NCBI GenBank assembly: GCA_030615745.1
Contig: JAUWYR010000002.1
Coordinates: 15,522-79,521 of the forward strand
Source of the DNA: Candidatus Zixiibacteriota bacterium
GTDB lineage: Bacteria > Zixibacteria > MSB-5A5 > SM23-73-2
Length of the DNA: 64,000 bases
Direction: 5' to 3'
Below, piece after piece: positions 10,451 through 53,451 of the stretch. The notes under the pieces were generated by a model. It had not been told where the DNA came from. It saw only the letters and a program-made list of their open reading frames with translations, and did not search any database. Each line of letters opens with the position of its first letter. Within the stretch, counting starts at the first letter, position 1. Both the position numbers and the translations under genes were made by a program.

Positions 10451-12394
10451 CTATACATCCAGATTTTTCACGTACTTGGCATTCTCCTCGATGAACTTAC
10501 GTCTCGGCTCAACCTGGTCTCCCATTAAAATGGTGAAGATGTGTTCTGCCTCCGCTGCATCCTCTAAGGTTATCTGCAAAAGTGTCCTGCTTTCCGGATC
10601 CATAGTAGTCTTCCATAATTGATCAGGATTCATCTCACCCAAACCCTTATATCTCTGAATAGTTACCCTGGTGTTTCCCACTTTCTTTAAGATCTTATCC
10701 CTTTCCTCATCTGAATAGGCATAATATTCTGTGTTCCCTTTTTTGACCCGGTATAAAGGGGGCAAAGCTATATAGATGTATCCCTGCTCGATAAGCTCCC
10801 TCATATATCTGTAGAAAAAGGTCAAGATTAAAGTTCTGATGTGGGAGCCATCGATATCCGCATCTGTCATTATGATTATCTTCCCATATCTTTTCTTTGA
10901 GATGTCGAACTCATCAGTTCCAATCCCTGTTCCCAAGGCGGTAACTATGGTTCTTATCTCCTCGTTGGAAAGGACCCGGTCAAGTCTTGCTTTCTCCACA
11001 TTGAGGATTTTACCTTTCAGGGGTAAGATGGCTTGAAATCTTCGGTCCCTTCCCTGTTTGGCAGATCCACCAGCAGAATCACCCTCAACAATGTATATCT
11101 CACACTCATCCGGGTCAGTAGAAGAACAATCAGCTAATTTACCTGGAAGTCCGGTCGACTCTAAAGCACTCTTCCTTCTGGTAAGCTCCCTTGCTTTTTT
11201 TGCTGCCTCCCGGGAACGGGCAGCAGAGATAGATTTCTCAGTTATCCTTCTGGCAATAGCTGGATTCTCCTCAAAAAACTCAGATAGGTTTTCACACAAA
11301 ACCGATTCAACAATCCCTTTGACCTCAGAGTTTCCTAACTTTGTCTTGGTCTGTCCCTCGAATTGGGGATCGGGTAATTTAACAGATAAAACAGCAGTCA
11401 TACCCTCCCTGACATCCCCCCCCTCTAAAGAGAAATTAGAATTCTTTAAAAGATTATTTTTCTGGGCATAGGAGTTGATCGTTCTGGTCAGTGCTGTCTT
11501 GAACCCGACCAGATGGGTTCCACCCTCTAAGGTATTGATATTGTTAACATAAGAGATGATGTTCTCCACATAGGTATCTGTATATTGCAATGCTATCTCA
11601 ATCTCTATGCCATTTTTTGTCCTCTGGAAATAGATCGGCTTGTGCAACCTCTCTTTGTTCTCATTAAGATAATCGAGAAAGGAGATAAGACCTCCCTTAT
11701 ATTTGAAGGTGTGCGATTTGCCGGTTTCTTTGTCCTCGATAAATATTTTCAAATCCCGGTTTAAAAAAGCAAGCTCCCTCATCCTCGCAGAGAGAACATC
11801 GAAATTAAAATCGATTTTCTCAAATATCTCTTTATCAGACAAGAAGGTCGTTTTAGTCCCGGTATGGTCGCTTTTTCCAATCACTTTTAACTCTGTTGTC
11901 GGTTTCCCCTTTTCGTATCTCTGATACCATCTCTTTCCATCCCGTAAGACCTCCACCTCACACCATTCGGACAAGGCATTAACCACAGAAACACCAACCC
12001 CGTGCAATCCTCCTGAGACCTTATAGGTTCTGTGATCAAACTTACCACCTGCATGAAGCATTGTCATAACAACCTCCAAAGCAGGCTTTTTCTGAGTGGG
12101 ATGAATACCCACAGGTATGCCCCTACCATTATCCTCAACCACGACCGATTTATCCTTATTGATCACCACCTTGATCGAATTGCAATACCCAGTCATAGCC
12201 TCATCAATACTATTATCCACCACCTCATAGACTAAATGATGTAGACCCCTACCCCCGGTATCACCGATATACATAGCAGGTCTTTTGCGAACCGCCTCCA
12301 ATCCTTTTAATACCTGAATGGTAGCAGCATCATATCTCTTGCTCTCCGATGTTTGCTCGTTGGGTACTATTTTTTCCATTTTATTTTTTCCCAT
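10451..12394 (-). CDS. gyrB: DNA gyrase subunit B
   Basis: [26 protein letters not shown] and QRYKGLGEM motifs. Confidence 0.98.
12334..12350 (-). repeat. CAAGAG micro-insertion (ATCGGAGAGCAAGAGAT) in the gyrB N-terminus
   Basis: 1 mismatch to the copy at 12897-12913; removal turns QTSESKRYD into QTYD. Confidence 0.7.
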
Positions 12395-12405
12395 AAAAGA
12401 TTTTT

Positions 12406-12732
12406 TTAAACCTCAGAGTTAACAAAAACAATGTCTTTTATCAAATTTTTCTTAATATGCTGATTTAACCTATCTATTATATTTTTTTTTAAGAAAAAAA
12501 GCTCGTTTCTCCAGCAAGGGGATTTAACTTTTACAAAAAGAGTTGTCCCTTCGAATTTAAAAGCACTGCTTTGTGAGGCTATTTGTGGACCAACTATATC
12601 TTTCCAGAAAAGTAACGCCTTTCCTCCTAAAATTCTTTTTTCCAGGCCCCTCCTTTTTAGACTCCTCTGTAAAATTGACCCCAAAAGTTCTGGGCTTTTC
12701 TCCTTTTGATGTCCGAAGGACTCATAGAGCAT
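12406..12732 (-). CDS. DciA / DUF721 family protein
   Basis: [17 protein letters not shown] motif; canonical position upstream of gyrB. Confidence 0.85.
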
Positions 12733-12868
12733 ATATCTAATCTATTAAGATTATACGTAAATAGCAAGTAAATTTTCTTTAATTTTTTGTATAAAAAATA
12801 TCTGTCCTGCAGGGAAAAACAACCCCCTTCTGCCTAAAAATTAGAGCCTTAAATTAAAAATCCATATC

Positions 12869-12924
12869 TGCGTATGCCGAAGGTCAAGAGACATGCATCG
12901 GAGATCAAGAGATACGCATTCTAC
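12869..12924. repeat. 20-bp palindrome (REP-like; GTAG overlaps dnaN stop) interrupted by two 15-nt CAAGAG insertions
   Basis: Removing 12878-12892 and 12898-12912 gives the perfect palindrome TGCGTATGCATGCATACGCA. Confidence 0.85.
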
Positions 12925-51238: not shown

Positions 51239-51487
51239 ATGGGAAAACAAAAAGGCAGACCAATAAAATATGTTCCTTTGAGAACCCTTCCTTCACGGCT
51301 TTATGCTTTGATGTTGAAGGAAGCATTAGCAAAACATAAAATTCCATCGATAGTCAAAGGTGATGATGTGGGGATTATGTTAGGCAGTTATTCTACCACC
51401 TCCCCGGTTGAGGTTTCCATCTGGGTTCCTGAAAAGGACAAAAAAAGATGTGAAGAGATAGCTGATCAGATGTTCGACCATATATGA
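51239..51487 (+). CDS. DUF2007-like small protein
   Basis: ALMLKEALAKHKIPS..VSIWVPEKD pattern. Confidence 0.7.
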   Translation: MGKQKGRPIKYVPLRTLPSRLYALMLKEALAKHKIPSIVKGDDVGIMLGSYSTTSPVEVSIWVPEKDKKRCEEIADQMFDHI

Positions 51488-51490
51488 TTT

Positions 51491-51707
51491 TCGGTATCGA
51501 TCAAGAGATTTGTTCTTTTTCTGGTCAAAGCCCCGTTTTTAATCGGGGTTTTTTTATTTTAGATAATACAAAAAATAGGATAAATACCGATAATAAAATG
51601 AAGAGTAAGCAGTAGACAGTAGGCAGATGAGATTTTTGGAGTGTCAAGCTTTAGCTTGACTGGATAGTGGCTCTTGTTAGTGCGGGAAATCCAATTCCCG
51701 CACTAAC
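51491..51707. repeat. CAAGAG insertion (51491-51509), terminator-like hairpin, 7-mers and REP-like palindromes
   Basis: AAGCCCCG..CGGGGTTT+T run; GTCAAGCT-TT-AGCTTGAC; GTTAGTGCGGGAA..TTCCCGCACTAAC. Confidence 0.75.
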
Positions 51708-51735
51708 ATAAACATATTCTCAAAATAGTGTTTTT

Positions 51736-53451
51736 ATGGAAGAGTTAGAGATCAAAAAAGAAAGGCTCGAAAAGGAACAAGAGATAAACGAAGCAAAAAA
51801 GCTTTTGGATTTTTTTCTAAAAGCTTTGAAAAACATAATGATCTATCCTGAGGATAATCCTATCCCTTTTGAATTCAAAAAAGGTCTTTACAAAAAATTC
51901 AAAGATTTTTTAGAAAAAAATGGTGAATTTAAAATTCAGGTCGATTCAACCAATCTTTTATATCAAAATGAAGTGATCTATCATGATCAATCAAAAGATG
52001 TGCGTATGCATCAAGAGAAAAGCATCGCTTTCTTTATATATAGAGATGGTATAAGGGAGATAAAATTTGAGATGGGTCTTCCTGAGAAGGAGTTGAACTC
52101 TTTTTTAGAAATATTAAAATTAGTAGTAAAAAGGCTTGTGCCAGAGGATGATCTGGTAACTTTATTATGGGGCAAAGACTTTAATTTCATAAAATATGAG
52201 GTAGTGGATGAAATTTTAGCTGAGGAGCTTTCTTATTCCACTCAGGTTTTTTCTCAGCCCGACTTCGAGAAGCTATATCACTCCGAGATAGACCTTCCTG
52301 AAACAGAAGAGGAGAAAAAAGTTAAGGGGGAAAAGGTTAAAATCTTTGTAGAAAATATCAAAGCATTTGCAGAAGGAGAAATAACTGATCTTAACAAGCT
52401 TTTAGCTATGGATCAAAAATATCACCCTTTGGAGGCAACCATCTCTGTTTTTATTGAGATTCTGAATCAGGAAGAGCTTCCAGACTTTTATGAAATGGTG
52501 GGTCTGATCGAAAAAGGATTGGATTTGCTTATAGAGACATACGATTTCGCTTCTACTTATAAGATAATTGAGGCGATCAAGCAGGTGGAGCAGAGGTTTT
52601 CAGGGATTTCGAAAGAGAGGTCCGAGAGATTGAAGATTGCAGTAGAAAGGGCAGGTGATAAAAGAAGGATAGAGATTATTGGCGAGATACTTAACCGGGA
52701 AAAGAAAGTTGACCTTTTTTCTGTTCAGGATTATCTTTGTTCCCTTTATTGGAATTCCATCTCAAATTTAATTAATATTTTGGGGGAGTTAAAGACCTTT
52801 TCAGCACGAAAGATGGTTTGTCGAGTATTGGAGAAATTCGGCAGGGAAAATCTCGAGTTGGTGGGAAAGGGAGTATTTGATTCCCGCTGGTATGTTGTGA
52901 GAAATATTTTATGGGTCTTAGGTGAGATTGAAGATAGGAGAGGGGTCGAATTTGTAAATTTTGCCCTAAAACATGAAGATGTCAGGGTTCGCAGGGAAGC
53001 GATCAGGATTTTGGAAAAAATTGGAGATTCTAACTCTGGCACTGCTTTAATTCCTCTTTTGGATTATGATTTTAATAAAATTCGCATAATGGCAGTTAAG
53101 CTTTTAGCCAAATGGAAGGTCAAAGAGGCTATAAAACCTTTGCTGGAGATAGCTGAAAAGAAGGAGTTTCATAATATAGATATTGAGGAGAAAAAGGAGC
53201 TGCTTTTAGCTTTAGCAATAATTGGCCGAGACGAAATAATACCCTTTTTTAGAAAGCTTTTGAGGAAAAGGGCTTTTTTTAATCGGGAAAAAAAGATCGA
53301 AACTAAAATCCTGGCGATAAAAGCCCTGGGAGCATTAAATTTTTTAAAGGCAAAAAATTTATTGACGGAGATTAAAACCAAAAGGAATAAGACCTTAAAG
53401 GAAGCATCAGCTAAGGCCTTAGCAAAATTAGAGTTGCTACCAAAAATTTAG
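51736..53451 (+). CDS. HEAT-repeat protein
   Basis: DSRWYVVRN and DVRVRREAI repeats. Confidence 0.85.
   Translation: MEELEIKKERLEKEQEINEAKKLLDFFLKALKNIMIYPEDNPIPFEFKKGLYKKFKDFLEKNGEFKIQVDSTNLLYQNEVIYHDQSKDVRMHQEKSIAFFIYRDGIREIKFEMGLPEKELNSFLEILKLVVKRLVPEDDLVTLLWGKDFNFIKYEVVDEILAEELSYSTQVFSQPDFEKLYHSEIDLPETEEEKKVKGEKVKIFVENIKAFAEGEITDLNKLLAMDQKYHPLEATISVFIEILNQEELPDFYEMVGLIEKGLDLLIETYDFASTYKIIEAIKQVEQRFSGISKERSERLKIAVERAGDKRRIEIIGEILNREKKVDLFSVQDYLCSLYWNSISNLINILGELKTFSARKMVCRVLEKFGRENLELVGKGVFDSRWYVVRNILWVLGEIEDRRGVEFVNFALKHEDVRVRREAIRILEKIGDSNSGTALIPLLDYDFNKIRIMAVKLLAKWKVKEAIKPLLEIAEKKEFHNIDIEEKKELLLALAIIGRDEIIPFFRKLLRKRAFFNREKKIETKILAIKALGALNFLKAKNLLTEIKTKRNKTLKEASAKALAKLELLPKI
52001..52018 (+). 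repeat. CAAGAG micro-insertion, in frame in the HEAT gene
   Basis: TGCGTATGCATCAAGAGA; removal turns DVRMHQEKS into DES. Confidence 0.8.

Follow-up and report, generated by a model that had tools for sequence, protein, structure and literature searches.

The question raised by this locus, a 64,000-nt window (the whole stretch of DNA that was analyzed) on contig JAUWYR010000002.1 of an uncultured Candidatus Zixiibacteriota bacterium from marine sediment, is whether its many 15- to 18-nt sequences consisting of a tiny hairpin followed by a CAAGAG-containing tail are mobile elements that have inserted, in frame, into essential genes. A preliminary description of the window had listed about 13 such copies in both orientations. 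When the context of every CAAGAG was read, all 13 were found at their places and with the variants described, on the plus as well as the minus strand. The consensus RTCAAGAGAY occurred 12 times in the window, compared to a mean of 1.01 and a maximum of 4 in 100 dinucleotide-preserving shuffles used as the background. One of the matches, at position 15904, has no hairpin and probably occurred by chance. We consider it probable that these sequences represent a family of ultra-small, non-autonomous mobile units, that is, micro-transposons moved in trans.

The abundance of the motif was not restricted to the window. A search of the host genome (G000; 2.28 Mb in 74 contigs, 98.55% complete), which had been suggested together with the original list, returned 217 RTCAAGAGAY matches in 186 clusters, and the motif ranks second in abundance among the repeated 12-mers of the genome. 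A locus was accepted when RTCAAGAGAY was preceded by an 8- or 7-nt hairpin with a two-base stem, by CGRAG, or by another unit; 156 loci fit this grammar of hairpin plus TCAAGAGA, and 32 further RTCAAGAGAY matches do not. The 18-nt unit consists of T, an 8-nt hairpin, A, and the fixed 8-nt tail TCAAGAGA. Among its 123 instances, the hairpins were GCGTATGC (44 times), CGGTATCG (18), GCGGACGC (12), GCGGAAGC (12), GCGAATGC (8), and CCGTATGG (8). The 15-nt unit is T-CGAAG-A, T-CGGAG-A, or C-CGAAG-G followed by the same tail, and a rare 17-nt unit, present at 10 loci, has a GAA triloop (T-CGGAACG-A or T-CCGAAGG-A plus TCAAGAGA). Units also combine. When a 15-nt unit sits between the hairpin and the tail of an 18-nt unit, the result is a 33-nt composite, and this composite followed by another 18-nt unit makes the 51-nt composite found in the BatA gene of the window. 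At 12 loci (e.g., C37:1694, C41:2075, and C62:26308), the ATCAAGAGAT tail is included in a ∼45-nt repeat, TTTGCGGAGCATCTCCGTATGGATCAAGAGATTGACGATAA, of several overlapping mini-hairpins, some copies of which are joined to an inverted GTCTCTTGAC-CTTCGG module.

The evidence that these units are insertions comes from sites that are filled in one copy and empty in another. A scan of metagenome contigs with the 25-base composite retrieved 16 contigs from two other assemblies that were 91 to 99% identical to G000, and 38.5 kb was aligned. In this alignment, 33 cores were shared, and the indels that carried elements were exactly 15, 15, 18, 33, 33, and 51 nt long. For the remaining indels of ≥4 nt in this alignment, which were ordinary repeats, lengths ranged from 4 to 35 nt without any regularity of unit size. 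Paralogous repeats within the genome added filled/empty pairs of 18, 17, and 15 nt: an 18-mer inserted in the loop of the GCACGAAT..ATTCGTGC palindrome, a 17-mer at C51:29307-29323 compared with C33:23724-23854 (the 17-nt variant also occurs at C8:78689 and C23:17839), and a 15-mer nested in an 18-mer. In every informative pair, the boundaries of the unit were exact to the base. The 17-nt unit, with its 10 loci elsewhere in the genome and a filled/empty pair of its own, means that the net length is not always 15 or 18 nt as had been thought.

Comparison of orthologous proteins led to the same conclusion. It had been proposed that deleting the copies would restore plausible ancestral proteins, and at the five window genes named in that proposal, the orthologues indeed show gaps of 5, 6, 6, 6, and 17 amino acids. 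In the N-terminal region of gyrB, a minus-strand 15-nt unit at 12334..12348 (CGGAG plus AgCAAGAGAT, with one change) adds five amino acids (TSESK), and the GyrB of the same-genus relative G001 has a 5-amino-acid gap there. At the 3′ end of rnpA (Pfam Ribonuclease_P), the plus-strand 18-nt unit CGGTATCG+ATCAAGAGAT at 18830..18847 adds GIDQEM before the stop codon; the RnpA of G002 ends in ..NLAK* and lacks these six unit-encoded residues, by which the G000 protein is extended. The N-terminal region of a TPR protein contains the 18-nt unit GCGTATGC+ATCAAGAGAT at 39431..39448, on the minus strand and antisense, which adds six amino acids within ..QSLDAYA..; the G001 orthologue has a gap, reading FSSRYIQ where G000 reads FSYQSLDAYAYIQ. 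A HEAT-repeat gene carries GCGTATGC+ATCAAGAGAa at 52002..52019 on the plus strand, again adding six amino acids (VRMHQE), opposite a gap in G001, G002, and G003. The largest insertion, of 17 amino acids, is encoded by the plus-strand 51-nt composite at 41928..41978 in the BatA/VWA gene, in which a 33-nt compound (a 15-nt unit within an 18-nt GCGTATGC unit starting at 41928) is followed by a CGGTATCG+ATCAAGAGAT unit starting at 41961. Six of seven BatA-like orthologues (48 to 79% identity) have a 17-column gap at this place, and the seventh has an unrelated, shorter insert. For rsmG, which had also been put forward for alignment along with gyrB, rnpA, and the BatA gene, no match was obtained among the fetched loci of relatives.

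Nine further intragenic copies on two other contigs were compared in the same way, and in seven cases G001 and/or G002 had a clean gap whose length was as expected; at the other two, C56:49222 and C56:56283, the regions were too variable for a clean call. Clean gaps were thus found at 12 of the 14 intragenic copies tested. Among these, the insert in a TatD-like hydrolase (gene 14755-15558, minus strand) stands out as the sole one located in a conserved core, the others being in a terminus or a loop: a 33-nt composite at C30:15143-15175 adds 11 amino acids right after the conserved ..IVVH motif and is absent from G001 and G002. Unit-sized presence or absence among strains and paralogues, together with the orthologue gaps, supports the view that the units are recent insertions and did not evolve by substitution, and it upholds the core of the preliminary description, namely tiny, structure-bearing insertions that mostly preserve the reading frame.

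The filled and empty sites also bear on the target. A target duplication of 1 to 2 nt had been suggested, and the data do not support it. In the comparison of L132 with C70, the empty site, TTAAA|AAGG, contains no T, and therefore the leading T, which precedes 121 of the 123 18-nt units, is part of the inserted DNA; the ambiguity at this site is at most 1 nt. In the upstream flank (n = 123), position −4 is A/T in 113 instances and position −3 is T/A in 114, and downstream of TCAAGAGA (n = 123) there is a T in 92, then A/T in 102, then any base, and then a G in 72. This is a loose target preference, W-W-N|T-W-N-G. No covariation between the two flanks was seen, and the data therefore give no support for a target of more than 1 nt that is duplicated or base paired. 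The 15-nt unit was found at the same junction of 18-nt units carrying four hairpins (GCGTATGC, GCGGACGC, GCGGAAGC, and GCGAATGC), and it is polymorphic there. Units also sit within palindromes, as in the loop of GCACGAAT..ATTCGTGC and in the dciA/dnaN intergenic region of the window. The latter (12870..12913, plus strand) holds two 15-nt units, CGAAGGTCAAGAGAC at 12878-12892 and CGGAGATCAAGAGAT at 12899-12913, in the 20-nt palindrome TGCGTATGCATGCATACGCA; the units at 12878 and at 41936, inside the BatA composite, are of the CGAAG+GTCAAGAGAC type. Other units lie within insertion sequence (IS) transposase genes of the rve type and the IS256-like type (C37:1-588, C42:1-588, and C12:26227-26309; C9:1-588, the start of C11, and C35:11312-11788). 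They were multiplied with the IS copies and are not IS ends, and several contigs end in these repeats.

The pairing within the hairpin was evaluated without presupposing it, using 282 NTCAAGAGA matches in unique contexts, with the 15-nt type left out, and 2,000 shuffles. Both stem pairs were Watson-Crick in 133 of the 282 matches, compared to a shuffle mean of 36.8 and a maximum of 53, and three complementary stem types, GC/GC (77), CG/CG (31), and CC/GG (11), were present among the 133. The compensatory changes reported for the first hairpin are therefore well founded. The bases flanking the hairpin pair too, T with A in 133 cases and C with G in 19, with two exceptions (152 of 154), the C/G class representing few independent events because it comes almost wholly from one nested context. 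The covariation of GT..AC versus AT..AT, which had been assigned to a second hairpin, is real but is better read as the third base pair of the first one. The stem thus has 3 bp (T/C + SS ... SS + A/G), and the loop has 3 to 4 nt (GTAT, GGAA, GGAC, GAAT, or GAA). The fixed tail TCAAGAGA, with the preceding base and the following T/C, can form a second mini-hairpin, RTC-AAGA-GAY, and by nearest-neighbor energies the minimum-energy fold of a clean 18-mer is a double mini-hairpin.

The location of the units relative to genes carries a signature of selection. Open reading frames (ORFs) were called crudely, as the longest non-overlapping ORFs of at least 70 amino acids, and made up 86.6% of the genome. 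The 156 loci were distributed as 89 in ORFs (57%), 13 at ORF edges, and 54 between ORFs, which is a depletion in genes (P = 1e-19) and a 2.6-fold enrichment in the 13.4% of the genome that is non-coding. Sense copies occupy all three frames (29/14/12), and the 34 antisense copies are distributed as 27/7/0, with no copies in the frame that reads TGA within the unit (P = 1e-6). None of the 10 17-nt units was in a called ORF, compared to 89 of the 146 other units (Fisher P = 1.4e-4), with the reservation that one IS-borne copy is repeated at several of the 17-nt loci, which leaves about five or six independent cases. Each unit adds 5 to 6 amino acids, and the peptide differs by frame and strand. 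The signature of frame and length indicates that selection acts on the host genes while they carry the inserts, which is indirect evidence for translation of the inserts. Successful units are multiples of three and stop-free in five of the six frames; insertions in tolerant parts of proteins therefore survive, and 17-nt insertions or those in the stop frame are eliminated from genes.

A further trend concerned start codons. An ATG that begins an ORF of ≥80 amino acids follows 14 of the 156 units at a distance of 0 to 5 nt or shares 2 nt with them, and in 11 of these the offset is exactly 0 or −2. For instance, the plus-strand CGGTATCG+ATCAAGAGAT unit at 19102..19119 abuts the yidC start codon, the ATG at 19118 being formed with the last bases of the unit. 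Start codons seem to be places where insertion, next to them or within them, is tolerated or preferred. The 18-nt unit GGGTACCC+ATCAAGAGAT at 28493..28510 (minus strand) sits right at the 5′ terminus of the rsmG (GidB) ORF; the true start codon may lie downstream of it.

Expansion of the family is confined to one lineage. When up to one mismatch was allowed, the 18-mer had 49 occurrences in G000, a single one in G001 (∼76% nucleotide identity), and none in the 39 other relatives searched. The core counts in G001, G002, and G003 were 22, 15, and 22, near the 13, 18, and 15 of a reversed-pattern control. G001 does have genuine copies, e.g., two in tandem immediately upstream of a start codon, at a site that is occupied by other sequence in G000; the family therefore either predates the G000/G001 split or was transferred, and its expansion took place only in the G000 lineage. 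Among public data, the 38-48-kb stretch was found in 20 runs from 11 studies, labelled as metagenomes of marine sediment, the subsurface, hydrothermal vents, and seawater. In four of these runs, contigs (at least 85% likeness) span the copies at 12334, 12878/12899, 18830, and 19102 with no indel listed at them, and parts of the 16- to 18-kb region are almost without contig cover in those runs. Since contigs from other runs span the same copies, the units are not the product of one assembly. Specifically, the gyrB site is covered by contigs of the four other runs with no indel listed, and the site at 12870..12913 is spanned by contigs of runs X2, X4, and X6, with only a 1-nt indel listed nearby. 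Across 596 Gb of genome contigs, GCGNANGCATCAAGAGAT gave at least 93 single matches in unrelated phyla, which is the chance level for a 16-base pattern. Viral contigs gave five single 18-mer matches, attributable to chance, none of which was preceded by T and none of which was accompanied by further cores beyond the background.

How might such units move? Any explanation has to account for their anatomy, insertion polymorphism, nesting, selection signature, and lineage restriction, all of which are established by the comparisons above. We think it likely that some trans-acting enzyme moves them. Such an enzyme would read the hairpin by its shape and the 8-nt tail by its sequence, would excise or copy the unit, and would insert it without duplication, preferring sites that resemble the 5′ boundary of the unit (N|T..G) and places prone to be single stranded, such as other hairpins. 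As to the kind of enzyme, a HUH/Y1 nuclease of the RAYT/IS200 kind, specific for hairpins in single-stranded DNA, is the preferred candidate, and a rather doubtful one because neither linkage nor a strong strand bias was found.

Several observations weigh against this interpretation. It had been suggested that the presence or neighborhood of a gene (HUH/RAYT, reverse transcriptase, or nuclease) might correlate with the motif, and none could be linked to it. The genome has three Y1_Tnp (RAYT/IS200-like) genes, at C17:32073-32636 (minus), C25:17608-18180 (plus), and C65:19957-20487 (plus), and each is flanked by a palindrome of its own (GTCAGGAGC..GCTCCTGAC, TGCTGCAT..ATGCAGCA, and GTCAAGTG..CACTTGAC) that occurs at 6 to 8 loci. 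GTCAAG is common to the last of these palindromes and the GTCAAGAGAC tail, perhaps by chance. The three genes have no CAAGAG core within 400 nt, and Y1_Tnp presence does not track the units because all 21 relatives searched have such genes and nearly all of them are devoid of units. No reverse transcriptase (RVT_1) was matched in the 98.55%-complete genome at an E value of ≤0.001. A genome-wide inspection of neighboring unit pairs found no REPtron-like ORF bracketed by units, the orientations of neighbors were random (++ 15, −+ 11, −− 10, and +− 9), and the densest unit clusters hold ordinary genes with no bracketed "master" gene. The strand bias is weak, at 71:49 relative to local GC skew as read on short contigs, with 36 loci unassignable (P = 0.055). 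The predicted folds are marginal as well, with energies of −2 to −3.2 kcal/mol per single unit and z-scores of −1.1 to −2.65, and the covariation represents few independent changes because, within a subfamily, many copies derive from other copies. Of the distinct presence/absence events in the 38.5-kb alignment, six were contig only and one was G000 only, an ascertained excess given that the contigs were picked for carrying the composite, which leaves the exactness of the boundaries unaffected. Finally, with crude ORF calls, 25 of the 89 intragenic copies fall within the initial 10% of the ORF, where they may precede the true start; 60 of the 89 are between 0.1 and 0.95 of its length.

Movement by an enzyme has to be set against processes that need none. 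The units could be by-products of replication or repair, produced by fold-back or template switching in which nearby units are copied at stalled forks and existing copies serve as templates. The absence of a linked enzyme gene speaks for this, and so do the modest clustering of units (45 neighbor pairs within 3 kb, compared to ∼29 expected from density by simple arithmetic), their frequent position in or beside other copies and inside palindromes, and hairpin arms that are perfectly complementary in all intact copies, as snap-back copying would give. However, the identical 18-mer GCGTATGCATCAAGAGAT is present 32 times, on many contigs and between unrelated flanking sequences, which is beyond what de novo fold-back synthesis could produce, and template switching over a distance requires homology that the flanks do not have. 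By itself, fold-back template switching does not account for identical 18-mers at >40 unrelated sites. Boundaries that are exact to the base in all informative pairs also speak against it. We regard this origin as unlikely, and local copying may add to the clustering. Templated addition of another kind, by a reverse transcriptase or telomerase-like activity that copies a small RNA into nicks, would agree with the fixed sequence of the unit and with the lack of a target duplication, but the RVT_1 search described above was negative, and a longer "master" locus was not seen, as the larger repeats with units in them are IS genes or other repeat families. Such an activity is therefore very improbable.

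It is also conceivable that the units serve the host, as hairpins for transcript processing, termination, or translation start, or as uptake or recombination sites, and that they were kept by selection and spread by recombination. More than half of them, however, are inside ORFs, in both orientations and several frames, and some are in IS transposase genes. Their position relative to genes is inconsistent, sister genomes do without them, and their presence varies among near-identical strains. These facts make a host signal improbable despite the enrichment between genes, the units that abut or overlap likely ATG starts, and the strong conservation of the tail (32 of the 33 cores shared between strains were identical). 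The last alternative is an oligomer that became over-represented by point mutation and biased fixation, like HIP1 or uptake sequences, or an artifact of assembly or library preparation. Abundance alone would be compatible with either, but the sites differ by unit-sized indels and not by substitutions, the orthologues are gapped, and the units are present in independent JGI assemblies and in Logan contigs of several studies. A substitutional origin of the HIP1 or uptake type, which would leave orthologous sites free of gaps, was rejected, as unit-sized gaps were found at all informative sites, and the alternative as a whole is hardly credible. Mobile units moved in trans thus remain the preferred interpretation.

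Among known systems, the small dispersed repeats (SDRs) of cyanobacteria, with families of 21 to 27 nt, are the closest. Elhai and colleagues reportedly described them in 2008 from heterocystous cyanobacteria (Genome Res 18:1484). The resemblance lies in precise insertion at a fixed position of another short motif, the 15-nt unit always being at the junction of hairpin and tail of the 18-nt unit. Passages in PMC3116915, PMC4390886, and PMC13756078 treat SDRs as very short dispersed repeats that are thought to be mobile; in particular, SDR5 is 21 nt long, is inserted precisely between nucleotides 3 and 4 of HIP1 (as stated in part of PMC4390886), and is described in part of PMC13756078 as having no known function or enzyme. 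The CAAGAG units differ in that their indels are 15, 17, and 18 nt, below the range of 21 to 27 nt, and in that they belong to another phylum, have another sequence, and are mostly in ORFs, with a frame signature. The comparison with repetitive extragenic palindromic (REP) sequences and REPINs is less close. As given in sections of PMC3116915 and PMC3733652, REPs are 20 to 40 bp long, have a GTAG or CGTC tag, are mainly extragenic, and are often found as inverted pairs beside a RAYT gene. The same sections of PMC3733652 note REPs inside ORFs, replication and repair genes included, CGTC-tagged REPs without a dedicated transposase, and cleavage of single-stranded REP DNA by RAYT. A short palindrome with a conserved tag and many copies is common to both. 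However, the units are 15 to 18 nt with a 2- to 3-bp stem and the TCAAGAGA tail, carry no GTAG or CGTC tag, are located in ORFs in 57% of cases, and are not arranged in pairs by any rule, and the palindromes beside the three RAYT-like genes are different ones. A separate GTAGGGGAG family is also present in the genome. The supplementary list of intragenic REPs that accompanies PMC3733652 could change the impression that the intragenic share of the units is unusual compared with REPs.

Larger elements share single features with the units. Rickettsia palindromic elements (RPEs), which are ∼150 bp and encode a conserved peptide module according to parts of PMC10969869 and PMC3733652, are palindromic repeats that lie in frame in many unrelated, apparently functional genes. 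The units resemble them in this respect, with clean gaps at 12 of 14 copies, but an RPE brings a conserved peptide module of ∼100 to 150 bp, whereas each unit brings 5 to 6 amino acids, and these vary. MITEs, the miniature inverted-repeat transposable elements, carry terminal inverted repeats of ∼4 to 30 bp and a target-site duplication and are usually 50 to 500 bp, as described in part of PMC10969869; the units have no terminal inverted repeats, at most 1 nt of ambiguity at L132, and a length of 15 to 18 nt. Hairpin elements of mitochondria are similar in being small (double-)hairpin repeats with insertion polymorphism among strains, short target motifs, and no known enzyme. The double-hairpin elements of Allomyces mitochondria are said by Paquin et al. 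(2000) to be tens of nucleotides long. The GC cluster GC42 of yeast mitochondria is ∼42 nt with the AG target at both ends (in the portion of PMC4478555 that covers it). In contrast to the units, which are bacterial and have no duplicated target, these elements are organellar, longer, and GC rich in AT-rich DNA. Transposition of the IS200/IS605 type recognizes hairpins instead of terminal inverted repeats, makes no target duplication, has a short preferred motif adjacent to the insertion, and shows a strong lagging-strand bias. Its single-strand mechanism was reportedly worked out by Barabas et al. (2008) and Guynet et al. (2009). The units would resemble such elements in hairpin recognition, in duplication-free insertion by a short motif, and in a minimal substrate of two small hairpins. 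They differ in that no transposase is linked to them, the strand bias is weak, and they are an order of magnitude smaller than the known non-autonomous derivatives.

The units therefore fail the defining features of REPs/REPINs, MITEs, and RPEs and are shorter than SDRs, yet they work like very small mobile repeats in general. Neither their sequences nor any smaller or equivalent element was found among the matches listed in the article texts searched, and they are among the smallest mobile DNA elements seen so far. They push the lower size of bacterial mobile DNA below the 21- to 27-nt SDRs and the 20- to 40-bp REPs, and they define a minimal recognizable substrate, a 10-nt hairpin plus an 8-nt tail, that can be tested. 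They also provide a direct source of short in-frame indels, a defined element adding 5 to 17 amino acids to GyrB, RnpA, the TatD-like hydrolase, and other proteins; protein families often show loop insertions, for which slippage is the usual explanation. The contrast between 15- and 18-nt units, which occur in genes, and 17-nt units, which never do, amounts to a natural experiment on selection for an element's own length. In practice, the units can mislead alignment-based phylogeny, the calling of genes at start codons, and the typing of strains in metagenomes. A further step, which we take only tentatively, is to see in them a new class at the lower size limit of mobile DNA, a 15- to 18-nt micro-transposon made of a hairpin read by shape and an 8-mer read by sequence, which would be moved by an enzyme or mechanism so far unconnected with known repeat families, would make no target duplication, and would have had its length selected to multiples of three for colonizing a genome that is 87% coding. 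Such a class, if true, would be a steady source of protein indels of 5 to 17 amino acids, in essential proteins too.

The remaining copies of the window are intergenic. The plus-strand 18-nt unit GCGGAAGC+ATCAAGAGAT at 28253..28270 lies within a larger multicopy intergenic repeat, a context that recurs on five contigs, and a CGGTATCG+ATCAAGAGAT unit is at 51492..51509 on the plus strand. Near the rsmG copy, contigs of X2 (28326-31999) and X6 (28424-31025) each have 19 gap letters, which might include absence of the 28493 unit. By Pfam, the window genes discussed here are GyrB, RnpA, YidC, RsmG, a TPR protein, a BatA/VWA protein, and a HEAT-repeat protein, and they lie in the dnaA-dnaN-dciA-gyrB origin region. 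The best named homologue of the BatA protein has 47% identity and is labelled Candidatus Zixiibacteriota. Rfam found no family, tRNAs included, at the gathering score in the 64-kb window.

The same region showed other features. The GC skew changes sign near 16 to 20 kb, between dnaA-dnaN-dciA-gyrB and rnpA-yidC, and genome-wide 84% of called genes are co-oriented with the skew. At 16082-18127, an X2 contig has 6,059 other letters instead, and there is almost no cover in all four runs; this looks like a strain-variable island beside the replication-origin gene cluster. At the 5′ end of rnpA (18490-18507), where the coding sequence has a duplicated ..EGF..EGF.., 18 nt are absent from one contig in each of four runs, an in-frame indel of a non-CAAGAG kind. 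The intergenic stack at 28130-28470 contains the repeat families GTCATTGCGAG..CGCAATGAC and GAGCCATAAAGG..CCCTGGCCGGGCAGGC, and its summed contig depth in the four metagenome runs is 15 to 40 times that of neighboring bins. With 83 matches genome-wide, the CCCTGGCCGGGCAGGC family is the most abundant 12-mer family.

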